From Vermamoeba vermiformis (lineage: Eukaryota): a stretch of 20,000 bases of DNA. The notes under the pieces are model-generated. The model had not been told where the DNA came from. It worked only from the letters and a program-made list of their open reading frames with translations, and searched no databases. The stretch covers positions 433,110 through 453,109 of the forward strand of contig JBEWZL010000123.1 in the NCBI GenBank assembly GCA_045837725.1. The letters are read 5' to 3'. Position numbers and translations under genes: made by a program. Of this stretch, positions 1 through 20,000 are shown piece after piece (the first letter of the stretch is position 1; each line of letters starts with the position of its first letter).

Positions 1-528
1 GGAAGATGAACTCTTGCCGCACAACGTGAAGCTTATTACGTCACGAGCCCTTGACAACTATGACCGTCCCTTCACCCACTCACTTAGTCTCACCGACTCT
101 GAGTTCAACCTTTACGTGTCTCATTGCTTCGACCTCAACAGGAGCAGAGATGTCAACAAAGTTTTCGAGGAAGACGATGTGAAACAGCGGATTGTAGAGC
201 TCCTTCCTGCCAAGGAGTTGCCAATTGTTCGCCTTTTAGTAGATGAAATCTCTCGTGCCACACTAGCAGCAGACGTGGAGGAGATTTTTGCCAAGTTTGA
301 AGGACAGCAGATTCAGACTTTGATTGCCGAAATTGGTACGTTCACCATCGAGGAGATAACGTGACTAACCATTTTTTAGTTTTGCCTAATCTGCGCAAGG
401 AGTTCAACAACATCGAGCAAGCGTTGAAAATCGTCTTTACTAGTCCATCGCTGCCAGAAATGTTTAAGAATGGAATTTCCTTTGAGCGGGCTTGTCGCTT
501 AAAATATCTGCTCAACTTGCCTTTGTAA
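1..528 (+). CDS. 3' end of an uncharacterised protein-coding gene (last two exons; start lies upstream of the window)
   Basis: Open frame from position 2 (EDELLPHNVK...). Intron 336-379 (GTACGT...CTAAC...TTTTAG) joins in frame to VLPNLRKEFNN...RLKYLLNLPL, stop TAA 526-528. No family recognised. Confidence 0.75.
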
Positions 529-584
529 ATACAGATTTTGTTAATTAAATAACACACGACGTAGCATTATTTATTATTTAAGCC

Positions 585-2623
585 ATGCAAAGCGTGCTTC
601 GTCGATTAGTTAGCCGTTCTGCGAGATGCAATTCCACATCAGGAACTCGAGGACGCGCAAGAGTTTATAAAAAGAATTTCTGGACGTGCTCTGCGCCAAA
701 ATTTGTTATGCTAGCAGGTGTTGGTGTTGTAGGGGTAAGCATAATTATCCATAATTTTTTAGAATTAATTCAGAAATTAAAAAAAACTCTCTGGATCCAA
801 CGTAGAAATAATCGTATTGTTTGCGTTTAGGCATTTTCATACAGCGCTCTAGCGCCAAATTCGCGTAATTTAGATTCCAAGACCTCTGTTATTAACCCAG
901 CGGTGCCAGATGCACAAAATTTGGATGTCAGCGAGGCAGGATTTCGCTGGGTTGATGTAACTGCAGCGAACTTTGACGCAGAGCTTAAAAGAGTAAGAAA
1001 AACCTGCTTTGATTTGAGGCTAATCTCAATGTCCAGTTCAAACAACTCCTTCCGGAAGCCTTTTTAGTCTCAGTTGACACCGAGTTTACTGGCCTTGAAG
1101 CAAGCGAAAAGAATCGTAGTACATGGAACGATTCAATTGCACAGCGCTACCGTAAAAATAGAGATAATTGCAGTCAATTTATGGCATTACAAATTGGTGT
1201 ATGTTTGTGGACCAGAAACGACAAGCAAGAGTAAGTCTGTGTTGCATGTCATTTCACTCGTATTAATGTGTTGCAGATATGTCGCATATCCATTTAATTT
1301 CTATGTGATGCCCAAGGACAAGAACTTCTTGGTTCAAGCATCGTCTTTGCGATTCCTCGCGGATAACCATTACGATTTCAACAAGACGTTTGGGGAAGGC
1401 AAGAAAAGTGTAAATGCTCGATATTGTACTCATCTGAGTATTTTTATAGGAATTCCTTTCTTGAACTTAGATGAGGAGACACAAAGAAAAGATAAAGTGC
1501 TCATACGCTCTTATGATAAAATTACGATTGGACCCAAAGAGGAGATCTTGTTGAACGATTTAGTGTAAGTATATGCACAAATAGCGACTTTACTTATCCG
1601 TGTAGCAAGGAAATATCTGCGTGGCGAGATACGGCAAAACCGGGTGATGTGTTAGAAATGCCCAACTTAACTGGATTTCAACGATTGTTGGCGTATCAAG
1701 AAGTAGACCACAGGTTGGAGGCGTGATGAATTATAATGTTTTGTCTGAACTAATAATTATCCGATCAGGTTTGACGACATCTACTTCGATTCAAAACGAA
1801 CAGGCCCGCAAGTCGTACTGAAGGTGTTAAAGATTACCAAAGAAGAAAAAGAGGATAGAAATAGACAAAAAGTTGAGGCTGCGCTCGTAAGTTTATTATT
1901 ACACGGCAGTACACGTGTTAAAGTTTTGACAGAAAAAAATCGATGAAGAGGTTGGCTTTACAAAGGTCATGAAGAGCATAAACGAACGGTCCAATCAATT
2001 CGTCGTGGTTGGACACAACATGTTCTTGGATCTGTTGCACTTCTACGACAAGTTCTACAAGCGCTTGCCGCAAGAGCTTCCCGAGTTCGTTAAAGAAACC
2101 AACCAATTATTCCCGCAGTACGTACCCGCGCGCTTCCGTGTATTTAGTACTTATATTCATATTTAAAGGGTTATGGATACAAAATACATCGCTATTAACG
2201 ACCCACAGATCTCGAGTGTAGTAAAAACAACGGATCTGGGCTTCTTGCATCAAAATATTGCCAAGTTCAGCACAAATAATTCTCCTAAGATAGGTAAGTA
2301 ATTGACGAGAAACAAAGACGTAAATGTAACGCGACAATTTTAGCCATCCCGTCAAACTTCGGTAGGGACAGTGGATCCGGTGTTTATCACCAAGCAGGTA
2401 ATACAAGATCAATAATAAGAATAAGGGGTATCTCACCCACAAATTGACAGGTTTTGACGCGTTTATCACGGGTTACGTGTACCTGCACATGCTACACACT
2501 CTTGGAGGCAACGCCTTTAATCGTGCTTCAATGATGGCCTTTGCTCCATATATGAACAAAGTGAATTTATCGATGTCGCGAGCTCCACTGGATTTACAAC
2601 CTGTGAGCAAAAACGAAAAATAG
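585..2623 (+). CDS. PARN: Poly(A)-specific ribonuclease PARN-like (CAF1/DEDDh exonuclease with R3H insertion), multi-exon
   Basis: Spliced translation gives PARN motifs in order: VDVTAANF, VSVDTEFTGL (ExoI), PFNFYVMP, QASSLRFLADNHYDFNKTFGEGIPFL, R3H-like LTGFQRLLAYQEV, VVGHNMFLDLLH (ExoII), MDTKYIA, HQAGFDAFITG (ExoIII). Stop TAG 2621-2623. An alternative last exon via GTGAGC at 2603 would only change the last few residues. Confidence 0.92.
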
Positions 2624-2860
2624 AATTCCAGATTTAAATTTGTGAGCACATCCACGCAAGCGGCTGTTAATTTTCAGAAATTAAATAAGAGCAATTATAA
2701 CAAATGACCATCGATCAACGAAGGTTGTTAGAATTGTAGCTTAACACATTTTATTTTTATGACAAGTTTCTGACGTTTTTACAATTTGTGGTTCGGTTCA
2801 GAAAACAGCAAATTATTCAGTTATTGTCGAGCCTTTCTCACGCTAAACACAACACAAGCC

Positions 2861-5799
2861 ATGGAGATAACAGGCCTTGCGTTGAAAGAAGCTGCGAACG
2901 TAGCTTCTGGCAAAGATCACGATGGTAAACTCATTTCGGCGTTAGCCGAATTTAAGACCAATTTATTATCATTTTACTTGTTCTTTTAACCTCGCAAATA
3001 TCACCTTATTTTATTTTAAAGTGATTAATCAGCTGAACTAACATTTTAATTTCGCTAGAATACGTCGTGTATCGAGACGATGCAATTTCTATTTTAAAGT
3101 AAGTTACAGTAACTTAATATTTATTACGCACTATTTTGTGATTTTCGTCTCACCACATAACTGACTTTCGCAAATCTCAGACACAAAAAACGAAGCAAGC
3201 TTGGTAGCCGAGTTTTATTTTTACGCTTGGCGTTTTTAGTTATCTATATGCTTGCTCTAGCACTGCAGCAAACTCCTGACCGGTACGTGTTTCGAAATCT
3301 AAAAAGTGCGCCAAACTAAGATCTCGCGTTGCTCAGCATTGCAAGCATTGTGAAGCCTGTTAGAGCGAATTGGGATCCTAGTTTTGACGGTATTAACAGT
3401 CCTGTAAGTTTGACAGTTGTCGTTAGCTGACAATTTTACTAACTGCAATTTCTCTGTACAGATCGATTGGTATAACGTAAGTAGGCAGCCCAAAAATTAT
3501 TTAAAATTAATTTCAACAATAGTGGATGAGAGGGACGTTTGCCGGAGTAATTTTTGTGGGCACAGATCCAAGCGGCCAACCGCTGCCTCCGCGAGAGATC
3601 AACTTGGTCGCGCAAGCGAGTAAACTCATGTCTCCTGTTGTCATTGAAAGGAATAACGGAGGAGAGGACAATTGTGATGGTAAATACACTGTTCTGTAGA
3701 AATTTTCAACAACTTTTTCGTAGGTCGGTTTGCGGATGTTTACCCTGAATGTTTCGATGACTCGTTCACAGGTAAAAATATGTTACTTCATGTTTAAATT
3801 TCTAAATATGTCGCTAGAGCTTGATCTTAACGTTGACGAAACGACTTTCAACTCGGTCACGTTCAACGACTCGTTGTTCTTAGTCTCCAGCGATTACAAC
3901 GTGATTATCATCCCCGGCAATGTTTCAGATCCCGTGGCGGTCAATTCAATGATCAGTGATTTGCAAAGTCGAAACTGGATTGATCGAACGACTCGTACTA
4001 TTCGTGTTTCATTCGTGTTGTACAACGGCAACTGGAACGTGTTCATCAGAAACGACTTGGTACGTCCATATAATGTTGCTAAGATCGACTATTAACTCAA
4101 TTCAGACCGTTCTATTCACTACGTCCGGCACTGTGCGAAAAGAAATGTTGATTTCACCTGCCAAATTGGAACTGTACGAAGATCGAGTAGACAAGTTCCG
4201 TGGATTTTTGGAAGTATTTTTGCTTCTCGCTATCATTGGCTTCATGGTGTTTGAAATGCACTTCGTTCCGTTGAAGAGAAAAAAGCCGTTCTGGAGACCC
4301 GAAAATGTTGATAAGATGCTTTGGTTCTTGGTAAGCGTTGATCGTTATTTATGCGTGCTGTTGTGCTAATGTCTATCAGCTCACTCTTTCCTGCGCTGCT
4401 TTGTGGTGCGCTATCATCGGTGTATTCGACGCCGTAGTCTTCGACCCAGCTACTCTGTTGACCGACATTGAAGAAACCAACGGCATTTTCTTGTCGATCA
4501 AGCTGTTCACTGCCTACCGAGTGTTGAGCGCGTTAAGTAAGAGTTTGATTTTATCGTATATCTTCCTTTCTTTTTCTGACTCGTTGACAGATTTGTTGTT
4601 CACCCTCTACTTGACTGTCAAGGACATGCGTCTGTCTACGAACTTGTCTCTTGTGTCGCGCGCTATTAATAGAGTAAGAATAACCTTTCCTGTATTTTTA
4701 GCGCTAACAAGAAGTTTAGGCTGCCGCTGACTTGGTGTTCTTCTTGTTCTTGTTCTTCGTAGTATTTTTCACCTACGCCTTCATCGGCTTTTACTACTTT
4801 GCCGAAGTTGACCCACAATTCAAGACTTACCTCGCTGCGATTGAGTCGCTGTTCCAATGGTTGCTCGGTCAAGTTATTTTTGACACGCTGTACAAAGAGA
4901 GTCCCGGTGTTGGTCACTTGTACTGCTGGGGCTTCGTCATTGTGTTGATTTTCTTGTTGGTAAGTAATTCGATACATTGTATTGTGCGACGTTTTCTCAT
5001 CTCTTGCAGTTCAACATGCTTATCGCTATCATTATCGATGCTTATGGCTTCGAAAAAGAACAAACCGCAAAACTCCGCAAGACCAAGCTTGGTATCATCG
5101 AAGAGTTTAAATCATTGGACGCCAAGCGCAGGAGGAAACAAATTCAGAAGGGCAAGCTCACCACTGATCAAATCTTGGAGCGATTGCAAGCTGAAGATAT
5201 GGAGCTTGAGCGCGTGTTGACGAAATCTGATTTGCAGCAAATCACGTAAGTGTTAGAATCCGTAAAAACAATCGCGAACTCGTTTCTAAGCGTGGTTTTA
5301 GCGACTGGAGCGAGGAGCAAATCAGCGCTTTCTTGAAGAAGTTTGGTGAAAAGAACACTGCTGGCAAGTTGAACCGCGATCAACAACAGTTGATGGAAGA
5401 GTTCGAAAAGCAAATGCAATATCAAATGGCAAAGATGCAGCAGGAAATTTTGGGTGCGTTCCTACACATATTTACCTAAATTTGACGATGAGTGCTAATT
5501 CGATGTAAAACAGCGCAAGTGGCCACGTGGTTGGGCAAGCCCGTTCCTGAAGCGAATATTCGTCCTATGCTCAGCCCGCGAAAGGTCGTTAGTCCGCGCA
5601 ACAATAATGCTTCGCCTGTGACCTTGGACGATAAGTAAGCTGATATGATTTACCGTGTCATAGTAATTAACGCTGTTTTTGTTATTATAGGAACATTCGT
5701 ATGAGTTTGATCAATCCTGTAACCGTCAAGAACCTGCAATCTGAGACTAAACACGACTCTTCAAGCTCTTCGAGCGACAACGAGGCAGACAACGTCTAA
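2861..5799 (+). CDS. Polycystin-2 (PKD2/TRPP)-like cation channel, multi-exon
   Basis: Polycystin-domain signature LQSRNWIDRTTRTIRVSFVLYNGNWNVF, hydrophobic TM segments, pore region FKTYLAAIESLFQWLLG, S6 FLLFNMLIAIIIDAY, and a coiled-coil-like C-terminus. Includes a 15-nt microexon at 3462-3476. Last exon 5691-5799 ends DNEADNV-TAA. Confidence 0.88.
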
Positions 5800-5950
5800 A
5801 TTTTTCTTTTTCATACGTTACTTTATTTAAATAAACTAATAAATTTAAGAAAATCTCGAAAGACAGATTCGGTTGGAATTCCATTTTTGACGTATGCCAA
5901 AATACGTGGTTCGTTTGTATATTATTTAAAGTTAACGCGCGATAGCAACA

Positions 5951-8484
5951 ATGGAGTCCGAGGAGAAGAGCGGAACCGAATCTGGCGATCTGCGTTGGGT
6001 ATTGGCCAAACCAGAAGGAGATCTTCCTCCAGTAATGTTCGGACATTCCGCTGTTATTTGGAAAGACTCAATGTATATTTTTGCTGGTTATTCTTTCGGT
6101 TATTGGCGAGATCTCTTTCATTATGATTTAGGTATGCCTCTACAATTTTTAAAAATATAATTACCTTTATCTTTACGTTAAATATTAAATGGCACGACGC
6201 GTGCGAATAATAATTTTCATTTTGAAATTAACGCTCAATTTTAAATTTGATTTGGCTGGAAATTTAATATTGTACAGTAAAAAACGAGTGGAACGATACT
6301 ACAAGAATTAAGAGCGAACTACCTGCGCATTTGGTTGGTCGACAATACCACACAGCGGTCGTTTATGAAGACCAGATGTGGGTTCTGATGGGCGCTGGGC
6401 CCGGACAAGTTTTAAAAGAGTTATTTACGTATAATTTCCGTAAGTTAAATACAGATTAAAGAGATCAAGTATTAATTTTCAAAGGAACTCACGCGTGGTC
6501 ACCCGTCCCAATCAACGACGATTTTCCTCCCATTCGTTATCTTCAATCGGCAGTTGTATATAAAGATGCGATGTGGATATTCGGAGGAAAATTGAACACG
6601 TACAATAACGATTGCGTGAACGACCTACACCGCTTCGATTTCAGTACGTGTCATCAAAGATCTGGCAATTTAAAACCTAACCGTTTCAATATAGAAACAC
6701 TTAAATGGACTGAAATTAAAGTCCCTGATTATCTTCGACCTGCGCAGCGTCGCACACATTCAGCAGTTATTCACAACGATTGCATGTACATATTTTCAGG
6801 CTGGAACGGCGTCGATTATTTCGATGACTTGTGGGAGTTTAATTTCGGTAAGTTAATTGAGACGCGTGATTAATATTAATTCTAATGCAATTCTACAGAA
6901 TTACGTCGCTGGTCCCTTGTACACACGCTCGGAGACAAACCAACGGGTCGTCAGTTGCACACCGGTGTCATGTACGACGGTGAAATGTGGGTGTTTGGCG
7001 GGTACGATTCACATGAATTCTACAACGACTTGTACAAATTCAACTTCGGTAAGATAATGATCAACTGACAATTAATAGCACTAACCTCGGGCAGAAACAT
7101 GCATGTGGACTAAATTCGAACTCGATCACAAACCTGGTCCGAGAAATGCACACTCAGCAGTTGTTTATGAAGGTGCAATGTACATATTAGGAGGAAACAA
7201 CTTCTTTGAGCCTGAGGATTCGCTGTGGAAATTAGGTAAGTAAATTGTTCGATACGGTCTTCGGCTAGGGATTAATGAACTTTAGAATTGCCGCATCGAC
7301 AACGCTTCTCTTTGAACGAACAATTAACAAATGATTTTCATGGATTACTCAACAACCAGCGTATGACGGACATACACTTGACCATCAACGGCAAAGAGTT
7401 TCAATTGCACCGATTTATGTTGTTGGCACGATGTCCGAAATTCCTGCAGCTTGCAGAGTCAGACAAATTGCTGCACTTCGACCTGTTCGTGGGTGAAGAG
7501 GGTGCCGAGTTACTTGAAAACGTGATCGACTTCATTTACACGGATCGACTGTCCGTGTTTCGAAAAGCAAATTGGGAGACATTGTTTGAAGTTTTGGAGT
7601 TTGCTCAAAGCATCAACTTTGACCAGCTTGTGCATGCCTGCGAGTACATGATTTCAGCGCGTGCCCGAGTGGACAACATTAACGAGATCGAAGCTCGTGC
7701 TGCCGGGGCACCCAACTTGTTGGCCTGGTACGTTTACGCGAGTGTTGTCATCCTATTTTATTAATTAACACGATATAGGTGTAAATATTTCAGCGATAGC
7801 ACGGTTGATATGCGTGACCCTGCTCTTCTAGTCCCATTGTTGTTTGAACCGAAAGAACCCTCTGAAGAAGTGCGTTTGACTTACGAGCCAACTCTCGCTA
7901 AAGATATGCTGCGATTATACACTGACCAAGTACAAACCGACTTGACAATAGTAACCCAAGCACGTAGCTTTTCTGTGCATCGAACGGTTCTCCTTGCACG
8001 GTAAGAAAAAGTATAATAACGCTATATTAAGCGGTGCTGACAAATGTAGGTGTCCCTATTTCGAAGGTTTAATGCATTAAGTCAAAACACAGCAGAGAAC
8101 ATTAACCACGATTTGAAAATACCCGAAGAAGATTTTGAAACAATGTTGAAGTTCATCTACTCCTCTGAAGTGCACTTCAAGCCAGAGAGCTTCTTCTCCT
8201 TGATTGCTGAAGCTTCATTTTACATGATTGATTCTGAACAGTTCTACGAAGCATGCTTTGAGCATTTTGAGTCTCATATCTCACTGGAGAATATCTACAA
8301 TTTGTCCAAAATTGCAGCACAATTCCCCGAGATGACCACCGTTAAGAATTGCTTGCTGGAGTTTGTCAAGAAAAATTGGGCAACTGTGAGGCAGCAAATC
8401 AATGATTGGCAGGTTGGTTTACTAGATTCTCTAGATTGGACAAGAGCATTATGGGACTTCAAGAAAATAGAAGATGTAGATTAA
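5951..8484 (+). CDS. Kelch-repeat plus tandem BTB domain protein (LZTR1-like Cullin-3 adaptor), multi-exon
   Basis: Six Kelch repeats (GHSAVIWKDSMYIFAGY; YHTAVVYEDQMWVLMG; QSAVVYKDAMWIFGG; THSAVIHNDCMYIFSG; HTGVMYDGEMWVFGG; AHSAVVYEGAMYILGG) followed by two BTB domains (TDIHLTINGKEFQLHRFMLLARC; TDLTIVTQARSFSVHRTVLLARC). Confidence 0.9.
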
Positions 8485-8574
8485 TAAACGTAAAATCACT
8501 TACTGGTGTTACAGATTTTACTAATACTTAAAAAAAGTGACATTTGCCTGACCTGTTTTTCTTAATTATTCACC

Positions 8575-9295
8575 ATGGAAGATTGGCAAAATACACTTTC
8601 TTGGTGGGATACCAAATCCATTTGATGTGGATGGGGCCATGCTCAATCACATCAACAAAATGGACACAAACACCCTGCAAGAATAAATTTCTGTCTTATT
8701 GACAGTAAGTTATATCAGGCAGTCAAATTCACTGAGATCACAAAAGAATTGCTGAAGCCTGCAAATGAGATTGGCAACAACCTGAAGTTGGGAATTGACT
8801 TTGCACTAAAGAAAGTCAAAAACAAAAAGTGGGTTCCGTTGGTAAAGTAAGTAATCCGATCAATAGGTGTGTTTCAATTTGTAACTTATTTTTTGAAGAG
8901 TGTCAGAGAAAGAAGGCTCACTGGTTTGGTATGAAGACAGATGTAAGCGATCACATCTGCCTGTGTGATTTGTGTCAAAGAACACAAACTGAATATACAG
9001 TGGCCCCACTTGAGCATATAATTCCAGAGTATGTCTCAAATTATAGCATATTACTATTTTAATTAATGCTTATAAAATTAACAAGCTTCAATTTTTTAGG
9101 AAACCATTTGTCTGTTGGCAGATTGACTTCACGACAATTGCAGGACATGATGGCTATTTGTTAATTGTAATTGATTGCTTCAGCAAATACATATGGTTCA
9201 AATGGCTTGCAACCAAGGAAGCATCTGGCGTAACTGCATTTTTGCTCTCTATAATTAAGAAAGACGGTGCAAAGCCTCACATCATTCATGCATAA
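8575..9295 (+). pseudogene. Decayed retroviral-type (rve) DDE integrase with introns; Ginger/TDD-like DNA transposase remnant
   Basis: ATG at 8575 with an in-frame TGA at 8623. Zn-binding half HWFGMKTDVSDHICLCDLCQR. Intron 9029-9099 joins APLEHIIPE to KPFVCWQIDF...YLLIVIDCFSKYIW...KPHIIHA, then TAA (9293-9295) where the second catalytic Asp (SDNG) is expected. Confidence 0.85.
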
Positions 9296-10270
9296 TTAGG
9301 TTGGTGCTGAACAAAGTTGGAAAGTGCACATCCATGCACACAAGCAATTGTTTAGCCATCTTGTCTTCCACCTGTGGTTCTCGGATCTGCAACAGTTTGG
9401 CCTCTGCTAATTTGGGCTACCATCGTAAAAGTTAGTACATGAGTCCACTTCCTCATAAATAATGTACTAACATTTTTTTCACACCATAGTTTAATAAAGT
9501 AAGAGCAGCTGTGGACGAGGAATGCTGGTGTAACTCCAATGATGTTGTGATGGACCATGCTGTAAATTTTGGATGCTTTCTTGATTTTCTATGATGAACT
9601 TGTACAGGATCAAAGAAGCTAACCATTGATGAGGTAGGTATTACTTCGTCTCAAATTGACCCCAGATCAAACCCTTGCCAATGCTCAAAAACAAAATGTG
9701 AAGAAACAGTGAATGGAACTATTAAATGATGCTATGAAAATTAATTAAATCTGCCAAGGATCAAAACAAAAGATTTGTCATCCTCAAACTATTAGAATAG
9801 ACAGTGGACACATACCTTGCTAGTCAAACAGAAGAAGCCAAATAAATTTTGTCATGTGGGAAGAATTAAAACTTATCTATTTAATACCCACTTATTTCAT
9901 TTTCCTAGGAGTTAGGGGCATGATTTGAGGATCCACTAAGTTGATGAAAATCTCAAAAAGTAAAAAAGTTGTCAATTTTTTTGTGAAAATATTGTGCCTT
10001 CAGGTCAATATTAAAGGGATCTAGCAGATTTACCAAAACTTCAAGTTCATCTTCTGCGGTGTGCATCAAGATGCTGCAGCAGTGGTTGACATAACATGTA
10101 CATGTACATTTTACCTTTTGAAATTAAGTAATTTAGTTTGTGATTGAAATGGAGATTGACACAACTCCAACTTGTGAATTGATTTTCAATGCTGTTTGAA
10201 GTGAACCTGGTATTGACTGCTACAGTATTAGAACTCAGCAACGTTTGCGCATGCTCCAATACAAGCATAC

Positions 10271-10337
10271 GCATTTATATAGGGTCTAGGGTTATATATC
10301 ACATTGGGGTTAGCATTTTACAGGGTTAGGGTTATAT
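10271..10337. repeat. Imperfect direct repeat with telomere-like TTAGGG/CTAGGG words
   Basis: GCATTTATATAGGGTCTAGGGTTATAT (10271-10297) and GCATTTTACAGGGTTAGGGTTATAT (10313-10337). Confidence 0.7.
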
Positions 10338-10387
10338 TCTCCATCCGGATGAATCACCCTAAAAACCTTCTCTTTTTTTACTATTAA

Positions 10388-11028
10388 AATGCGAATGGGT
10401 TTACTAAATAATGCGCATGAGTTCTCTAATAATGCGCATGAGTTCGCTTAATTAGTACAAAATTGTACCAAGAGTACGTTGAAAAATAAAGTTTATTTTA
10501 CAGTTACAGTACGTTGTACATGAAATTTCTATGTCAATTCCCATTATATGGGATTTGATTCAACTCATTCGCATGTAGACATCAGCATGAGGACATTCGC
10601 ATGAAGACATCAGCATGAGAACATTCGCATGCTTCATCCGAATGACTGACACTAATGGGGCATGCGCATGTAAATTAAACATGCAAATGTATTTACTATC
10701 ATGCGAATGCAGTAACGGACTGTCTGCCATGCGAATGTACTCGCTGCCATGCGAATGCGATCACTTGACTGTCATGCGAATGTACCCGCTGCCATGGTGA
10801 TCACTTGACTGTCATGCGAATGCAATCACTGTCATGCGAGTGTAATCACTTGGCTTTCATGCGAATGCGTTGGGTTTCATGCGAATGCATTGGCTGTCAT
10901 GCGAATGGACTAACTCGCTGTCATGCGAATGCACAAGCTGGCTAACATGCGAATGCACTCCTTGGTTGTCATGCGAATGCTACGAGCAAGTATTAGTCTG
11001 ATGCTTGGCATTGCTCATCATGCTAATG
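10388..11028. repeat. Array of ~24 copies of a 10-bp quasi-palindrome CAT(G/T)CG(A/C)ATG in two opposed blocks
   Basis: CATTCGCATG at 10566, 10594, 10622, alternating with CATCAGCATG at 14-bp period. Perfect palindrome CATGCGCATG at 10661. Eleven exact CATGCGAATG copies between 10700 and 10979, with motifs mostly 20-28 bp apart, plus variants. Confidence 0.92.
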
Positions 11029-11576
11029 TACTGGGATGCTGAAACAAGTTAAGTCCAGCAGTGCGGAGTGACACGTGTCAAATATCTCACCTTTGCGCGG
11101 TGGCACATTCAAATACTCGTCGCTCAGTCGGCAGCGGAATTAACGCGGAACTTTGGTCTGGTGGTGTCAATCGGCTGTTCTCCAGTCTCGCTCTCCTGTG
11201 CCGTGCTGTCCTCACTCGTGCTATTATTAGCCTCAGTGGCACTCTCCGTCTCTTTCTTCACCACGCGCTTGGGTCGCATGATGAGTGCACGCGTGCAACT
11301 CTGCACCAGGGCACATTTCTCCGCAATCTCCGCACTCGAGATGACGGGTCAAGTACTCGCTGTGCTCGCTCAGCTACGTGCTGCTGTCACTGCGAGTGTA
11401 CTGTGGCCACCACGAGTAGAAATCGTTGCTCGTGCGCATGTGAAGCACCACCAAATAAACTAGAAAAAACAAGTAAATAAGAGTTTGAAGTAAATACATA
11501 CATAATATTTATTAATTGTTTTTGTTTTTTTTTTGAATTTGATATTAAATATATATATAAAATACTCGTGGACAAA

Positions 11577-14496
11577 TTACATCGTCTTTTGTCTCTTCTC
11601 CTCTCGCTCTTGTTCGAGAAGTTTTGCCAAGGAGAACGTAGTAATCTTTCTCTTCTTCTCGGGGTTGGCAGCGCCGGCGGGTGCATTGTTAGACGGAGTA
11701 CTACCATCGTTGTTGACCATGACAGGAACAGGCTTGTTGTACGAAACCTTCGGAACAGGCACCGGTGTAGGTGATGGCATCACTGGCACAGGCAAGGGGA
11801 CTTTTTGCTCTCGTTGTCCTAGTATGACCTTTGGACGACAGTACTTGACGACGGTGTTGGGCTTAGGTTTGCTTGGTTTCGGAGTCATGCGAGCACTCTC
11901 GATGGACGTAGTTCTCCGGCTACAGTCACCGTACACAAGCTTACGGGATGGCCCTGGCTTCAAGTTCGTGTTTGCGCCAGTTCGCATGTTGGTGTTTGCG
12001 TCGGTTTTCAGGTTGGTATTTGTGCTTGTGTCCTTGTTCGTTTCCCATTCAGGTGGAGCATTCAAATCCAAAGGAGGCGTTGAGGGCGCGTTCGAATCCT
12101 CAGCAACAATCGAGTTGATCGTATGGGTAGGAGAGTCAGACGAAGAAAGTGAACTGTGAGCAGCGTGGTAAGAATCAGACTCAAGAGCATCATCAGAATC
12201 AGAGACGATATGAGAAGATTCGATGGACTCGCACTCGGCATCACTCTCGTCGCTGTCCTCGCTGGCCTCACTTTCTTCGCTTTCTTCGCTTTCTTCGCTT
12301 TCTTCACTCTTGTCATCACTTTGGTCCTCGTCGCTCTTGTCGTCATCACCGGAATTAGCGCCAGAACCTCCTGATTTGCCTCCCGAGCTGGATCCATCAG
12401 CAGAGTCGCGTGAGCTGTCATCATTGCTCTCCTTCGAATCAGATGAAAAACCAGAAGACAGCTCCATAGAGCTGCTGTCAAGGCTGGACTTTTTTGTCGA
12501 GTAGCAACCTCCGATTGTAGCCCAGTACGTGTTGACGAGTGACATGAACGCAAGTAGCTTGGGCCCAGGCAAAGTTTGCTTGGTGCCATCTTTGAACAAG
12601 ACTTCGAAGCAAACGGACTGTCTCTTGCCAACGAACTTGTGACCAACGATTCGGTCAATACTGTCTGCAAAGTCGTCATGAGTCTTGTCGTAGCGCTTCT
12701 CAAACTTGTTGATGACGCTCGCCATGGCCTCGGAAGGAGCTATTCCAACCGTCTCGTTGACCTCCTTCAGCGTCTTTTCGTTGACACCAGCACGTTGAAC
12801 TCTGTCGTAGTGCGTGCTCATAACGGCAGGTGAAGTATTGATCAGTGCTGCGTGCTTCTCGCTGAAAAACTTCGAGATGCCTTCGGTGTCGTTGTTCAAG
12901 TGATGTTCGGTCAGAAAAGAGACCAGCGCACGACGGAAATAAGCGCAGCTGATCGCTCTTCCTGGGAAGTAACTCGCAACGACATTGCTCACCACCTTCG
13001 AGAGTGTAGTGAAGTCTAAACGAGCGAAGGTTAGCGACAAGATGAGTTTGAAACAATTACTTACTAGGTGCGTTACCGTCTCGATTGACCCACATGGACT
13101 CAACTCCTTCGTTACGAACCAGAGGCAAGTAGTGCTCGAACCAAATTCGCAACGGTACTGCAAACGCTGCAGGCAGCAAGAAGAAATCTGTCTTAGCTCG
13201 CTTGACTTTTTCCGGTGGTGGGAAGAACTTGACAGTGTTTCCCTCAAAGACAATGTTCTAATTAAATAATTAGTAAAGTATTGATTAACGGAGCCGATTT
13301 GTAGTTCGTACCGACACCGTCATTGAAGCCGTGAACTGTCGTCGTTGTCCTCCAAGATACATCATTCCAAGGACGAACAAGTTGCCCATGAAGTTGAACA
13401 TTCCTTGTCGCGACAAAGCTGAACTTTGTCGCTCTTTCGTCAAGAACTTGTCATCCAAGTTGATGTAATACACCAACTTGTCACAGATGTACGCGTTCAA
13501 CTGCCGTAGCTCGTCTTGATGAAGCCACTGCCCAAGTAACATCAGGTTCTCAATCACCATTTTATTCGCGTTAGCCTTGGCTTCGTCTTTCGCTTCTGCA
13601 GGTCAAAATAGTATCAGAATCGTAATCGTACAGAATATGTTCGCAACTTACTTGCACAAGGAGCACGCAGCAAATCCTCCACTGCATCAATCCGTGCCCT
13701 GTAATTGGCAAACTCTTCGAGACCCTATTACAGAATTAGATTACACCCCATGACCACAAGTAGTTACTTACGTGAAGATACTTCAAGAACATTCGAATAA
13801 TCTTCAGGCAATTTGCAATCGTGCTTGCAGACTTGCCCATGGATTCGTACCACCGCGGAAAAGCGGCCGCCACGCGAACGTCCAGTAGATGACGAAGGTC
13901 TACTACGACTGGTTTCACTTCCGTATCGACAAAACGAAAGAAGATGCCAAGCATAGAACGAGTTTCGGCGCCGCGATCAGAGCCTGTGTTGGACAAGTGC
14001 TTCTCTTTCACCTTGAGTTCGTCTGCGGCAGAGGATTTTTTCCTGGTCTTGCGCTCACGTTCGATGTAAGTATCGAACAACTTCGGTACCTTGAAGTACT
14101 TGACCAAGACTTGATCAAGCGAGAGAGCATTAATTCGTAGCGGCTTTCCTGTTCTTGAATCCCCTATTAATAAAGTTAACAAACTTAACCACCGGGACTA
14201 ATTAGTCTTAAACTTACTTTCGGCAACAGCAAACTCCTTAGTTGCTAAGTCTTCAGGTACGTCTTCCATATCAACGACTACAGGAGCGTCGCTATATTGA
14301 AGCAAAGCCTTTTTGACGTTACTGAGGTCAGTGCGAAGCCTTTTAATCTCCGGCGAATCTGCTTAGACTGTAAGATTCGGTTACAGAATTACTGAAAGGC
14401 TTACCATTCATCGTCGCTGTAGACTCTTTTTTCTGATCCGTGTCCTACAAATTGTCAACAAAAATTTTTAAAATTCTGTTGTGTTACCTTCTCCAT
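11577..14496 (-). CDS. Tyrosine recombinase (phage-integrase fold) with C-terminal chromodomain-like domain and acidic/Ser-rich tail, ~856 aa, 8 exons
   Basis: Exons 14496-14488, 14444-14405, 14358-14218, 14163-13772, 13724-13652, 13595-13312, 13257-13065 and 13015-11577 join through GT-AG introns into one stop-free frame. Core-binding helix GKSASTIANCLKIIRMFLKYL; catalytic motifs GGQRRQ (R), PEKVKR (K), SCAYFRRALVS (HxxR position), LINTS...THYDR (Y). Confidence 0.82.
12271..12308 (-). repeat. Coding 9-bp tandem repeat (SEE)n in the YR acidic tail
   Basis: CTTTCTTCG repeated about 4 times on the + strand, encoding SEESEESEESEE on the - strand. Confidence 0.85.
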
Positions 14497-14628
14497 GATT
14501 GCAAAAGATAAAGATTGAAAAAACGCCTACGAAAAAAAAAATTGTTAACCACGCGACTTTTGACGAACTAAAATTTATAAGTCCAAATATAGTACGTTCT
14601 GAAAATAAAATTAAGTAATCTCACAAGC
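14497..14628. promoter_or_regulatory. Probable bidirectional promoter between the YR gene and the small divergent gene
   Basis: Only 132 AT-rich bp separate the two divergent ATGs (14496 on -, 14629 on +). Function is inferred from the arrangement. Confidence 0.5.
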
Positions 14629-15482
14629 ATGGAACCACACAACCAAACTCCACTCCTCGATCAATACTACGGCAGTGATATGAGCGACGAGACAGTTGAG
14701 CAGGCATATCTTAAGATTGAGGAGCTGCTTAGCTACGCACGAGAGGACAGTAACAACACCATTCTTGTTGGCGACGGCGATGATATTGAGTGCGAACAAA
14801 CCTTACCCTATGAACACGAGAACGACGAGAACGACGAGAAGAACGAACGGGAAGTATTATCATGGCAAATCAAGGATCCGCGCACGTGGTTAGAGAAAGA
14901 TATAAATAAATCCCACGCACATGGTTTGAAGACAATTTTATCATGAAATTGCCTGAAGAAGAACGAGAAGAAGTCCGACGGAAATACAACAACGGTAACT
15001 AAAAATAACTCCGCCGGATAACCTCCGGTACAAAAATGTTAGCGATTAATAAATTATGCATTTAATTACAGAAATGGGAGAGAAGTAAGTCTTACCTCAT
15101 TCTAGTCTTAATTTTAACATGCCATAGCGAACTGCGATGCTTATGTTCGAAAGAACACGGACACTTTTACGTGCACTCAAAAGATTTTTCCGAGCAATGG
15201 TTTGGTAGAGGTGCGTTAGCTGGATTGCTCGGAATGACAAAGAACTCTTTCTGTTCTAAGCTATCGATCTATGTGCTCAATTGCCCGGCTGGCTGCGCAC
15301 CGTTCAACACGTGCAAAGTCTTTCATTCTAGCGGCAACGGCAGCCCAATACGCCCAGAACGTTACTATACGTTGGAAGAAGCCAACGATATACTGAGACA
15401 ATGGCTTACGCGCCCAGGAGGGAAAAAGGATTGGGTAAAGAGATTGCACGAGGCCAACGATTTTTTGAAAAACTTACTATAG
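14629..15482 (+). CDS. Small divergent gene: acidic N-terminus plus putative Bro-N/winged-HTH-like DNA-binding domain; apparent frameshift near 14905-14915
   Basis: MEPHNQ...KDPRTWLEKD changes frame to PRTWFEDNFIMKLPEEEREEVRRKYNN. An intron, a 13-nt microexon (AAATGGGAGAGAA) and a second intron follow, then ELRCLC...EQWFGRGALAGLLGMTKNSF...RYYTLEEANDILRQW, ending at TAG 15482. The domain call is by weak resemblance only. Confidence 0.6.
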
Positions 15483-15834
15483 TAGGCTTCTGGGTTATAG
15501 AAATTTAAGGGTTATAGAGTTTAAAGTCCAGTTAAACCCCTTTTTTGTTAAATTTTTGACTTTTTTTGTCTTTTTGCCGTCACTTTTGCATTGAAAAGCA
15601 TGCCAAAATAAAAACACTAAGAGACAAGTTTAACTTTAATTTACTTAGAATAAATGTATGAAAAACAATAAATAGAAAAGAACAGCAAGAGTTTGTTTGA
15701 AGTTTTTTTTATTTTTACATAAAACAGTTACAACTGGTGTTTTTATTTGGCAAGGCAGTGAAAGCAAAGCTCTGCGGACCAAAGATAGGCTGTAGACTAA
15801 AGTAAGTTAAGTAATGTTAAGTTAAACATTGCCT

Positions 15835-16481
15835 GGTGCAATGTGGAACATCCCCTTTGAAAAGCTAAAGTTGAACAAGGGGTGGTTCTACAAGGAGCCA
15901 GGGGTACAGACACATGGAAGACTGGTTTGTGTGGTGCTGGTCCTATGTAAAAACAAAGTCTAACAGGGGGAGGTATCGCATGGAACCAACCTGTTAAAAA
16001 AATTGAAGTTCAAACAAGGGGCGGTTCCTCAAGGAACCGGGGGGCAAGAAAAACTAAGTCCAGCAACCCCGGTACTGTGAGGAACTGCCCTTTGGGAAAA
16101 AATAAAGTCCAAAGAGGGGCCGGTACGGCAAGGAACCGACCCTTGAAAAAAAATAAAGTCCAAGAGGGGTCGGTTCCTCAAGGAACCGGGGTCAAAAAAA
16201 AACAAAGTCCAAAAAGGGCCGGTTCGGCGAGGAACCAACCCCTGAAAAAAACTAAGTCCTACAGGGGTCGGTTCCTCAAGGAACCGGGGGTAAAAAAAAC
16301 TAAGTCCTGCAAACCCCGGTTCCATGAGGAACCGACCCTTGGAAAGAAACAAAGTCCAAACTAGGGTCGGTTCCACAAGGAACCAGGGGTGAGGAAACAA
16401 AGCCCAATTGAGGCTAGTTCCCCGCAGGAACATAGTACTGGGGCAGGCTAGGTCTTGAAAGGGCTGGTTCCACTTGGAACA
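15835..16481. repeat. Tandem array (~49-50 bp period, ~13 units) of 16-bp palindromes GGTTCC-N4-GGAACC separated by A-tract/AAGTCC linkers (parS-like)
   Basis: Cores start at 15835, 15884, 15972, 16023, 16071, 16122, 16172, 16221, 16270, 16318, 16369, 16416, 16466, with a degenerate unit near 15924. GGTTCCTCAAGGAACC is exact at 16023, 16172 and 16270. Confidence 0.95.
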
Positions 16482-17570
16482 GCTCATCCAGGATTAGCAC
16501 ATCGAGGTGCCAGTTCAGAAAAAAAGGCTGTATAATGAATTTGGCCCAGAAAACAATTAATTGGGCATGTGCCTAGTGGCACAAGTGAAAAAATCAAGTA
16601 AAAGAAATAAATTTGAGCTAATCTGGAATAAAAAATTTTGACATCCAAAAATTAGCCTTGGTGTCGTAAAAATTTGAAACCAATCATGTAATTAATGGGA
16701 AAACAGTGGCATACTATTTCAGGTATAGCCACTGCTCAAGAAATTAAAAAGTGACTTACCTGGCAACCGTGGCTCAGATGGGCAAACAGTCTCACGCAGG
16801 AGTGCACAGACACGCAGAGTGTATTACCACACAGGAGTGCACCAAGCACTCGACCATAGGCAACACACTGTGCTTGTCTGTGCATGAGAGTGGTGGTGTT
16901 GTGGCTGCGAGAATAGATAAACAAAAACAAAATCTTTTGCGAATTTTTTTTGTTGTGGTTCAAAGAGTGAACAAAAACTTTTTGGACCAATCACATCACA
17001 GGAAGTGTTAGTGTAGGGCTCCAGGACCCTAGCATGCAGTAGCAGTGCTAGAGGCAATGCAAGGCACTACACTGTCGATCTACTAGTGCAAAGACCACCA
17101 TGCAGCAAGATCTTGGTGGGGAAGTTAAGTTTTGGAAAGAAGGTCCGAGACTTAGGCATCCTATTAAGTAGAAGCTCTGCAACTCTCCACCCGGTCCCTG
17201 CAGTTGTTAGTTGAAAGGCAACCAAATGAATGCACAAGGAAGCCCGTGTGTAATTATTTTTTTTTGTTGTGAAGCAAAGTTGTGAAACAAAAAGTTTTTG
17301 GACCAATCCCAGAGAGCCTGCTGTGAATCTCACAGGGTGGAATTGTGCAGGAATAGGAACACTCACAAGTTAGGCCATTGCTGGTAAGCACTGGGTATTA
17401 AGGGAAGTATAGCTATGAAAGTTGACACATTCCAGTGTTCTTCGAAAACCGATCCGATATTTTTTCACAACCAATGACTAAATCTGCCTAATAGAAAGCA
17501 TCATTATAGTTAAACTCACAAGCACCAACAAATTAGAGTCACTAGGTAATAAACAAAGCCAACAGCAACG

Positions 17571-18230
17571 AGAAATTTCATTCGAATAAAATTTATAAAA
17601 TTCTTCTGCAGTAGATTTTTCTTGCGCTTACTTTGAGATTTAACGCTGCTCAAATGGGTTGCCAATACCTCATATCAAGCTGTCTGCAATATATGGGCAA
17701 AGAGAAGGTCAACAGGCACCAAACTAGCAAGGTGAGCACAGATCTGAATCCGATCCAAAGTCAAATTTTTTTTTGCTTTGCTTACTATACCTGATGGCAG
17801 AAATAATAGGAATTGATGTGGAGCTCTCTATATTAAAGCATAAGTAGCTGGGCCAGTAGAAAGGAGAAATTTCGGGTTAATAAACTTAATAAAAATCTTC
17901 CCCAGTAGAATTTTATTATTTTTAGTGTTGCGAGATTTCATGTGGCTTAAATTGTGATGTGTGCTTCATATTGAGCTATCTGCAGTATCATTCAATAGAA
18001 CAGGTCAACAGGCACGAGATGAGCAACATGAGTCCCCGATCTGAACTCGCATCCAAAGGTATTCTGGATGCAGGTTGCACAATGGCCCTGGTGACTGCAA
18101 TGTGCAAAATTAGTGAAAAGGTTTGAGAGTGAAAACCCACACAACTGAGTCAATATAAGGGAGGTATAACTGTTGCAGAAGGTTGACAAAATCTCCCCAG
18201 AATAATTTTTTCTCTCTAGGGAGATTTCAC
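17571..18230. repeat. Diverged ~295-bp tandem duplication (two copies plus part of a third)
   Basis: Matching blocks ~295 bp apart: AGAAATTTC at 17571/17866; CATATCAAGCTGTCTGCAATAT vs CATATTGAGCTATCTGCAGTAT at 17671/17967; AGGTCAACAGGCAC at 17706/18002; AAAATCTTCCCAG vs AAAATCTCCCCAG at ~17892/18188. Confidence 0.75.
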
Positions 18231-18288
18231 AACCAAACAAAATCTTTTTTCCAACGGTTCTATTTCATTTCAATATTTTGCTGTTATC

Positions 18289-20000
18289 ATGAGTAACACA
18301 AATATACGTGTTATGTCAGCAGACCTTGCAGCTGCTGTGCAAAGTCAACAGAGATCTTACGTAGAGATCTCAGATCAGTATTGGAAACAGAATGTTCTGG
18401 TAAGTATTGCTCAAATAATTAATTTAACTATGTAATAATTTTAATAATAATATTTTAACCTTTACAAGGTTATTTTGGAGGGTAAAATTGCAATTTAATT
18501 TTTTTGTGTCAGATTTGACTTTTTTCTTTTCACAGCTCCTCCTAATTCAATGTATTTTAATTAAACAATATTCCCTATATATTTTTACATATAAATTAAT
18601 AGCTTTTTAAATAGTCACACCAACTCTCTAATGAGTGGAAAATGGTCACGTGTGCCGAACTCAAGGCAAATCCCAAGGTCTTCAACAAGGCAAATTGCTG
18701 CGTCCCAGACTGCAAAGAGAAGGCACAGTACTCGTAAGTAACTCCAATCTATTGTTTTCAAGCCTAACTAATCCCTTGTAGCATCCCCACGTCAATAATT
18801 GATGATGGTGCAGCAGTGTGCAAAAACCACCTCAGACGCTTCACCATCACGCAAAGCTGCCACCCACTAAATAAGAAGGAGTCAGTTATTTTTGGTAGAG
18901 CGTAAGTATTGTCAGTTTAAATATATTATTGACTCTAATTTCCTTTCATGTTAGGTTCAACATCCGCACTCTAAACCGTGTTGGTCTCAATCGAGTGATC
19001 AACAAAATAGAGAAGCATGGTTGGGATTCGAACCAAGGATCCCTCCATGGTGTCATTGTGACAAATGGCAAGATAAAAAAGGTTGCCATCTTTGCAGGTA
19101 AGTAAAAGTAGTTGTTTTTTTTGCTTTATTTAGGTTATTAACAGTTTATTGTAGGTCAGCATCGATTTGAAGCTCTGATTTACTTGTGTGATCTGCACAA
19201 GAAGAATTTGGAGCATCAAATCCTTCTTTATGCTTTTGACTCCGAGGTGGAGATGCGAGCTGAAGGACACAGCATCCAGTCTAAAGAACAGACTGTGCGT
19301 AAGATGTCCTACCTGGAAAAGATCCTCCAGGTGCAGCATTTGGCTCATGAAGCTTATGGGGATACCCAAGATAATTGGTTCGCAGGCAATCGAACCAAAA
19401 ACTATTGGGATGCTATTGCTGGTCGCAAACTTCATGGTAAGTTGATTTTTGTTTTAATTAGATCTTTTTTAACCATTTGTTAAAAGATGTTGAATGGCAG
19501 CTGAGGTCGTTGGATTATAATGTCCTCAAAGAGCTTTCAACTTACCATGCCAACCATGAGGCAAGGAAAAAGTTCTTCCAAGTGTAAGTAATAACCAATA
19601 TTAAACCTCTAAAACTAAAAATAACATATTCTTTTAGCCCTTTTCTGAAAACTGACCTGCAGTGCTTGGCAAAATTGCCAAGGAAAGATCAGAAGATTTT
19701 CATGGAGCGACAGCAAGCACAGTGGCAGGAGGTTCACCACAAACGTAAGCAAATAGTGTGAGGTATTTCACCATTCTAAATCTTTTTTTTAGGTGCTGAT
19801 GTTAATTCAGCCCAAAATGTTAGCATTATGGCTGAATTGTTTGTTGATCATGCGGTGAAGGCCTTTGACAAGCTTCGCAAGCATTACAATGCGCTGGTGA
19901 GTTCCTTTTCAATTTTAAATTATTAAAAAAAAAACTGAATGATTCGCACATAGGAGGCACAAGGCAAAGACCTTGCTGCATTTAAAAGGAAACTGTGCCA
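18289..20000 (+). CDS. ParB/Sulfiredoxin-fold protein with an N-terminal Cys/His zinc-finger-like motif, multi-exon, 3' end beyond the window (5' exon structure uncertain)
   Basis: Spliced translation: CCVPDCKEKAQY...VCKNH; FNIRTLNRVGLNRVINKIEKHGW...IKKVAIFAG|QHRFEAL (intron 19098-19154 splits the GQHR motif); VRKMSYLEKILQVQHL; RSLDYNVLKEL; LAKLPRKDQKIF. The frame is open across all exons from 18615 onward. Confidence 0.75.

Follow-up and report, generated by a model that had tools for sequence, protein, structure and literature searches.

A stretch of 20,000 nt from the genome of Vermamoeba vermiformis (assembly GCA_045837725.1, contig JBEWZL010000123.1, forward-strand positions 433,110-453,109; the whole stretch is called the window below) contains a block of about 5.2 kb which is set off from its surroundings by three independent kinds of evidence, namely composition, repeats and assembly graphs. 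The block carries an eight-exon gene for a tyrosine-recombinase-like protein together with two small genes and a dense array of short sites (array A), and on balance we read it as a very divergent tyrosine-recombinase element of the Crypton kind, free of reverse transcriptase, or as a recent derivative of such an element. An earlier note on this DNA had gone further and proposed a single eukaryotic integrative element in which the recombinase is joined by a ParB-like protein and an array of parS-like palindromes. It is plausible that the recombinase module acts, or once acted, as a Crypton-like integrative element; the part of the proposal which made the ParB-like protein and the palindrome array its partition module gained no support. 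These latter two features, here named the GQHR gene and array B, both lie outside the block, and in our best reading they are separate neighbours and not a partition module of the element. The coordinates of all features are collected in Table 1.

The composition of the block differs from that of the DNA on either side. The ratio of observed to expected CpG is about 1.0-1.5 in positions 10500-15500, as compared to 0.13-0.5 on the left (8001-10000) and 0.2-0.6 on the right (15501-20000), and the CpG-dense stretch extends from about 10240 to the last CpG at 15458. When calculated by coding sequence the ratio is 1.08 for the recombinase gene and 1.17-1.30 for the small genes, as against 0.46 for the GQHR gene and 0.36-0.41 for an integrase relic just to the left of the block. 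The earlier note had itself cautioned that the recombinase side is rich in CpG and the ParB side poorer, and this step proves to be sharp. Repeats mark the same edges: the 8-mer GGGTTATA is present exactly four times in the window where 0.26 copies would be expected, a count which none of 200 shuffles reached, and the four copies (10289, 10329, 15492, and 15509) are all on the plus strand, in direct orientation, and form two pairs, one at either edge of the block. The left and right boundary zones can be aligned locally over about 25 nt, the left one being a candidate terminal repeat or recombination core, and no inverted repeat linking the two block ends was found. The third line of evidence comes from assemblies of sequencing runs. 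In X3, an independent water-sample run, a contig starts at 10322, breaks occur at 15477/15478, and the sequence of one contig is unlike the window for 165 letters ahead of 15478; contigs of sample X1 diverge after 10323. We place the left edge of the block within 10240-10330 and the right edge within 15478-15520, with array A, the recombinase gene, and both small genes inside and array B and the GQHR gene outside. The block is filled by these three components, and the eight alternative-frame open reading frames (ORFs) inside it match no Pfam family, so that no reverse transcriptase or other enzyme was found among them.

Table 1. Features of the 20,000-nt window; positions count from its first nucleotide, and features marked as neighbours lie outside the block.
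Feature	Position	Strand	Description
Truncated integrase relic (neighbour)	8799..9292	+	Pfam: rve, E 1.9e-8; Integrase_H2C2, E 8.5e-5
Left boundary zone	10289..10336	+	Two direct GGGTTATA copies within telomere-repeat-like GGGTTA sequence
Array A	10388..11028		Unit of 10 nt, CATGCGAATG, in about 20 copies, variants (ATGCGCATG) included
GC-rich segment with 51-codon ORF (ATG at about 11280)	11126..11393	-	From translation; just downstream of the recombinase gene
Tyrosine-recombinase-like gene	11577..14496	-	8 exons, one open 857-aa frame
Exons of the recombinase gene	14496-14488, 14444-14405, 14361-14218, 14163-13772, 13724-13652, 13595-13312, 13257-13065, 13015-11577	-	
Acidic 105-aa ORF	14629..14943	+	Runs opposite to the recombinase gene, whose ATG is 132 nt away
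Small 3-exon gene, 139 aa	14943-14994, 15072-15084, 15128-15482	+	GT-AG introns, open frame
Right boundary zone	15492..15516	+	Two direct GGGTTATA copies (15492, 15509)
Array B (neighbour)	15860..16490		49/99-bp tandem array
GQHR gene (neighbour)	18289..20000+	+	At least 9 exons, 376 aa in the window, runs off its end
Exons of the GQHR gene	18289-18399, 18615-18733, 18782-18901, 18955-19097, 19155-19436, 19487-19583, 19638-19744, 19793-19896, 19954-20000+	+	

The seven introns of the recombinase gene are all of the GT-AG type and measure 43-56 nt, which is the style of the source organism's own introns; host GT-AG introns of 46-50 nt elsewhere in the window are confirmed by RNA reads (joints 4673-4720 and 4958-5009). 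The catalytic domain is split over three exons, a layout which lowers the power of searches with curated hidden Markov models (HMMs), and for this reason the spliced protein was compared with home-built profiles of bacterial PF00589 domains. Profile 1 was built from the 13 PF00589 domains of Escherichia coli K-12, and the query combined the spliced protein with two relatives, P0001 and P0002; the hhalign comparison aligned 134 columns with a score of 32.2 (P 4.6e-4). The best of 149 column shuffles attained 21.3, lower by 11 score units, and the reversed query scored 17.0. Profile 2 was made from 27 PF00589 domains of five other genomes. In the alignments to both profiles the catalytic positions are taken by the same conserved residues, whose order and spacing are correct: GGQRR falls on the box I Arg, AYFRRA on HxxR, and K336 is placed in each case, while the alignment to profile 2 takes in the whole domain and matches K336 to the hairpin Lys and STHY to the nucleophile Tyr (Y448). 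The catalytic residues proposed from these alignments are R304/305, K336, Y404, R407, N438, and Y448, giving an active site of R-K-Y-R-N-Y in which R304/305, K336, R407, and Y448 occupy their proper positions, and those encoded by the last exon are invariant in all three available sequences.

Further indications come from the N-terminal exon of 130 aa, which independently shows a SAM-like core-binding motif (a weak Pfam match to Phage_int_SAM_1, E 0.079), and from the ESM Atlas, where leads at 0.80-0.82 point to Phage_integrase, NDC10_II, and ResT/TelK clusters. The latter are weak and count as leads only, all within the same superfamily; the one at 0.80 is to a cluster in which 25% of the members carry NDC10_II. 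The earlier note had reported an intact, intron-containing tyrosine recombinase gene, and the intact frame and the result with profile 1 lend this support, with the reservations that Pfam does not recognize the protein and that its tetrad is incomplete. Judged from its sequence, the 857-aa protein probably does have a recombinase catalytic domain, one which would be remote from all described families.

Relatives of the last exon were sought among about 15 billion proteins, and the class of 262-837 aa yielded P0001 (about 80% identical) and P0002 (about 62% identical), both of which are last-exon ORFs on contigs shorter than 2 kb; no further relatives were found at 838-2390 aa or at 96-307 aa, and no recombinase-related locus was found among metagenome or viral contigs. 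Downstream of the catalytic part the protein has a conserved segment of about 70 aa, followed by an acidic, serine-rich linker and a basic C-terminal tail, which is conserved in the relatives. The conserved segment after the Tyr (residues 480-550 or thereabouts; 12489-12700 on the minus strand) is modelled by AlphaFold, at low confidence, as three strands and a helix; its sequence pattern might, speculatively, recall a chromodomain, and Pfam gave no chromodomain match to these residues.

A number of observations weigh against a Crypton-like element. Neither the exons nor a 176-residue piece (P0007), in which an in-frame intron is translated and its stops are written as X, matched any family significantly in Pfam, NCBIfam, PHROGs, or PADLOC, and Pfam gave no recombinase-family match at E values of up to 1 for the exons and up to 10 for P0007. 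The R-H-R-Y tetrad is incomplete, with Y404 at the usual His and N438 at the usual His/Trp position. The score with profile 2 was a marginal 22.3, exceeded by one of 129 shuffles, a simple HMM built on the E. coli set reached no more than 2.6 bits, which five of 500 shuffles equalled or bettered, and the AlphaFold2 model of the last exon (from three sequences) had a mean predicted local distance difference test (pLDDT) score of 41.6, insufficient for a fold search. The terminal repeats are short, doubled at each end, and situated in A/T-rich DNA, and CpG-rich, motif-like sequence already begins about 50 nt to the left of the first GGGTTATA repeat, so that the ends of the block are not fixed. 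The contigs of the sequencing runs showed neither a second full copy nor an empty site or a circle junction, and among the joints listed none links the positions around 10.3 kb and 15.5 kb; since contigs tend to drop rare forms, this does not amount to evidence of absence. The contig depth of the recombinase body is near that of the single-copy flanks (663 for the X1 contig over 12110-14027 vs. 390-583). Finally, seven introns, an acidic linker, and a tail resembling a nuclear localization signal would fit a host gene equally well.

The most serious alternative is accordingly a domesticated or resident host gene derived from a recombinase, for example one for a chromatin or DNA-binding factor, with the arrays and the GGGTTATA repeats amounting to ordinary minisatellites and chance motifs of repeat-rich DNA; we hold this to be unlikely. 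The host-style introns, the low copy number, and the non-canonical Tyr and Asn in the active site all suit it, as do the existence of relatives in other sources with the basic tail conserved and the CpG ratio of the gene (about 1.1), which equals that of the unmethylated host genes in positions 1-8000. Many Crypton-derived host genes are moreover known, according to the available sections of one account of Cryptons (PMC3212892). The named examples there (Gcr1, Cbf2/Ndc10, KCTD1, and WOC/ZMYM) resemble the gene of the block in that they bear introns, are of low copy number and nuclear type, and have a recombinase-derived core with departures from the tetrad. Unlike these genes, as far as those sections describe them, the gene of the block keeps both Arg, the Lys, and the nucleophile Tyr, all of them invariant where the relatives cover them, and it belongs to a block which differs in composition from its surroundings, is bordered by matching repeats on either side, and has edges which coincide with assembly breakpoints. 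The surroundings of the block also tell against a host gene. The integrase relic on its left is depleted in CpG, and X1 contigs with internal deletions reveal that other copies of the relic region exist elsewhere; the setting of the block is therefore old transposon debris poor in CpG, and not a run of host genes.

Sequencing depth bears on the same issue. In X1 the summed contig depth is 1313-1743 at the left end of the block and 862-1080 at the right end, as compared to 663-673 over the recombinase body, and the ratio of the recombinase body to the ParB region is 663/538 in X1 vs. about 3/6.4 in X3. This profile would fit the existence of shorter derivatives together with presence/absence variation, but since summed contig depth is not a copy number we take it as a hint only.

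It is improbable, in our estimation, that the 857-aa protein is no recombinase at all and instead an unrelated nuclear protein whose motif matches are coincidental. The absence of a curated HMM match in four libraries, the small number of relatives, the low-confidence AlphaFold model, and the marginal outcome of both the second profile and the plain HMM are what would be expected in that case. Such a coincidence would, however, have to account for the lead of profile 1 over every shuffle, for the agreement of two profiles on the catalytic positions, and for the core-binding motif in a different exon.

Returning to the block as an element of the Crypton kind, its remaining components are the small genes and array A. 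The stop codon of the acidic 105-aa ORF overlaps the ATG of the small 3-exon gene (ATGA), and its only database match is to DUF5406 (E 0.0043, under the cut-off of that family). The 139-aa product of the 3-exon gene has no match in Pfam, PHROGs, or PADLOC and contains, in our own reading of the sequence, a helix-turn-helix (HTH)-like stretch, LAGLLGMTKNSFCSKL, which makes it a candidate DNA-binding accessory protein. A divergent small gene with putative DNA binding had been described in the earlier note: a divergent gene pair is indeed present, and the DNA binding stays putative, being drawn from the HTH-like reading. In array A, which is subterminal within the block, lie 21 of the 22 matches which the unit CATGCGAATG has in the window at up to one mismatch, the number expected for the window being 1.47. 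The plus strand has about 14 copies, spaced at intervals of 20-45 nt, and the minus strand three (10566-10631); the unit itself is not palindromic, and a palindromic variant, CATGCGCATG, occurs mid-array at 10661. The subterminal arrays of the En/Spm-CACTA and hAT elements and the arm-type sites of lambda integrase also comprise many short copies of one motif, and there the copies are bound by the element's own protein; the enzyme is a DDE transposase in the former and, in the latter, a bacterial integrase working together with IHF and Xis. By analogy array A, with its many short copies in both orientations just inside one end, may be an array of accessory binding sites.

Between array A and the recombinase gene is a GC-rich segment (11126-11393) which recurs elsewhere in the source organism with different flanks: X1 contigs match only 11171-11349/11393 and diverge beyond, and in run X16 the match of the RNA reads begins at 11182, to the left of which they diverge. 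This segment may be a captured or shared first exon.

Cryptons are DNA transposons reportedly described by Goodwin et al. in 2003. In the available sections of two accounts (PMC3212892; PMC13465315, on Glomhopper/CryptonA) they are like the block in several respects: a tyrosine recombinase is the only enzyme and there is no reverse transcriptase, the recombinase gene has introns, short direct repeats (candidates in the case of the block) and no terminal inverted repeats are found at the two ends, and an additional DNA-binding function, putative in the case of the block, is linked with the recombinase. The differences drawn from the same sections are as follows. The terminal motif of the block is 8 nt long and doubled, vs. 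4-6 bp in Cryptons; the putative DNA-binding protein has a gene of its own, vs. a C-terminal domain in Cryptons; and the active site reads R-K-Y-R-N-Y, vs. R-K-H-R-H/W-Y. The block has a subterminal array of about 20 sites, and the sections available of PMC3212892 make no mention of a "tandem repeat". The dense array, the separate small gene, and the doubled, telomere-like 8-nt core are thus features beyond those found in these parts of the Crypton accounts. With regard to membership of a described Crypton group, Pfam finds neither DUF3504 (CryptonA), nor GCR1_C or NDC10_II (CryptonF), nor Phage_integrase in the protein of the block.

A mechanism can be proposed on this basis, in which we infer the mobility of the unit, its exact ends, and the roles of array A and of the small protein. 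The recombinase would pair two of the direct terminal GGGTTATA cores, which belong to imperfect, telomere-repeat-like terminal direct repeats, and would excise the unit as a circle; the circle would then be reinserted at a site sharing the core. Excision as a circle followed by reinsertion at a shared core is the model proposed for Cryptons (PMC3212892, available sections). Array A would provide accessory binding sites, and the small 139-aa protein would act as an architectural or directionality factor. In its fullest form this proposal would make the block an active member of an undescribed lineage of eukaryotic tyrosine-recombinase DNA transposons, with the R-K-Y-R-N-Y pocket, a chromodomain-like C-terminal module, an HTH accessory gene, a subterminal array of about 20 sites, telomere-repeat-like GGGTTA cores as the recombination site, and a lambda-like arrangement of integrase, arm sites, and directionality factor. 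We consider this fuller version possible but doubtful.

The recombinase is so divergent that just two relatives were found among about 15 billion proteins and that no curated model recognizes it, and it is found in a cleanly delimited unit which combines candidate recombination cores with a dense array of putative accessory sites and with a small gene for a putative DNA-binding protein. Should the unit be mobile, the range of Crypton-like elements would be wider than hitherto known, and a compact system would be at hand for the poorly understood matter of how eukaryotic tyrosine-recombinase transposons choose and pair their ends. The resemblance of the core to a telomere repeat suggests a possible target preference.

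Outside the block on the right are the two features on which the proposal of a partition module was built. Array B is a true palindrome array: GGTTCC-N4-GGAACC with at most two mismatches is found 10 times, all in 15884-16481, vs. 0.30 expected, and the core CGGTTCC-N4-GGAACCG alternates in orientation at periods of 49 and 99 bp, in DNA which is depleted in CpG. Both of the arrays which the earlier note had taken for palindromic are real, and array B alone is built on a palindrome. The GQHR gene starts 1.8 kb further downstream and has introns of 48-57 nt plus one of 215 nt. Here the earlier note had seen an intron-containing gene for a ParB-fold protein; the gene is present, and the whole basis of the ParB reading is the motif AGQHRFEAL, which follows a strand-like segment. 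Set beside ParB of the ParB/parS systems (PF02195) and DndB, with its DGQHR motif (PF14072), the GQHR protein has a strand-like segment, then AGQHR, then a helix where those have GxxR/DGQHR. The points of difference are that the GQHR protein has no family match, that the Arg of the motif is replaced in a relative, and that no HTH or dimerization domain is recognized; array B for its part differs from parS in having a 49-bp unit with a 7+7 palindrome, and any tie to the GQHR protein is only putative.

Searches and models gave no support for the ParB fold. Neither the exons nor a 160-residue read-through piece matched a family in Pfam, NCBIfam, PHROGs, or PADLOC, PDB sequences yielded nothing beyond low-complexity or chance matches for any of the queries, the best one here being a chance-level match to a methyltransferase (E 0.034), and nothing usable was returned by the ESM Atlas for exon 5. 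The AlphaFold2 model of the read-through piece had a mean pLDDT of 45.3, and values lay below 50 over residues 1-97, which include the motif. The hhalign comparisons place GQHR on the GxxR/DGQHR position of the ParB_N and DndB profiles. The spliced product scored 16.3 against 36 ParB_N domains, with four of 92 shuffles as high, and 19.9 against 23 DndB N-terminal parts, with one of 92 as high; with an alignment of the GQHR family the scores were 15.1 (5/125 shuffles) and 19.7 (1/125), respectively. Relatives of exon 5 comprise three short ORF fragments among 1.84 billion representatives, to which the clusters add four more (P0008-P0011), and of the three sequences which cover the motif two, the window and P0008, have GQHR while P0010 has GKHW. 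With scores inside or at the edge of the shuffled null and the Arg replaced in P0010, the likeness to ParB and DndB is unproven. The intron just before the motif (19097-19155) is found at the same position in P0010, which comes from another source and reads through it, and this shared position points to an old eukaryotic gene family. No GQHR-related locus was found among metagenome, viral, or prokaryotic genome contigs. As to other relatives, P0005 was found on five contigs and P0004 on a contig of 135,677 bp. Exons 2-3 of the gene (18618-18899) have a C-x2-C ... C-x2-H pattern (CCVPDC ... CKNH) with the look of a small zinc finger, which Pfam did not recognize when exon 2 alone was scanned.

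A larger element extending beyond the window, with the recombinase, both arrays, and a ParB/DndB-superfamily protein which binds array B on the excised circle, would have in its favor the presence of all parts within 10 kb, the palindromes of array B, the aligned position of the motif, the DndB comparison at the edge of its null, and X3 contigs which show the same pieces with few differences, but we judge it highly improbable, since the ParB_N comparison lies inside its null, the defining Arg is not conserved, the CpG ratios of the two genes differ, array B and the GQHR gene are outside the repeat-bounded block, X1 and X3 disagree in the relative depth of the two parts, none of the X3 contigs bridges the parts, and no ORF for ParA or another ATPase is present in the window, off the end of which the GQHR gene runs. 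That array B and the GQHR gene belong to the Crypton-like element is just as improbable, and the caveat of two separate units, which the earlier note had added to its proposal, agrees better with the data than the proposal itself. A eukaryotic element with its own module of the ParB/parS type would be a striking parallel to bacterial plasmids and prophages, and the evidence here does not support it; our literature search, in which supplementary files were outside the scope, found no described eukaryotic recombinase element with a ParB-like partner.

The rest of the window provides the genomic context. The left half consists of host-type exons, which include a CAF1 ribonuclease, a polycystin-type channel, and a Kelch protein with two BTB domains. 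A second copy of the recombinase was looked for there by tblastn of the exons against positions 1-10300 and could be ruled out (best E 0.015). The integrase relic is apparently interrupted around 9003-9100 by a gap which resembles an intron. The interval from array B to the GQHR gene has degenerate repeats of about 300-316 bp in two pairs, 16944-16995 with 17258-17311 and 17670-17736 with 17966-18032, of which both members of the former pair have a GACCAAT box; the ORFs of this repeat zone (16700-18050) had no Pfam match. Rfam and tRNA scans of the whole window found none. The CpG ratio of the host genes in positions 1-8500 is 1.0-1.7, and that of 8001-10000 and 15501-20000 is 0.13-0.6, a mosaic which suggests that germline methylation in the source organism is restricted to stretches rich in repeats, or to certain gene bodies.

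RNA was represented by two runs with the same species label. Reads over 11508-11540 and at 19934 are poly-T/poly-A artefacts and are uninformative on the expression of the recombinase and GQHR genes. Most reads of these runs are only 90-95% like the window, and in the host gene at 4503-4643 they differ from it at fixed positions (e.g., 4503, 4518, and 4632); the runs thus appear to come from a diverged strain or a sister species.

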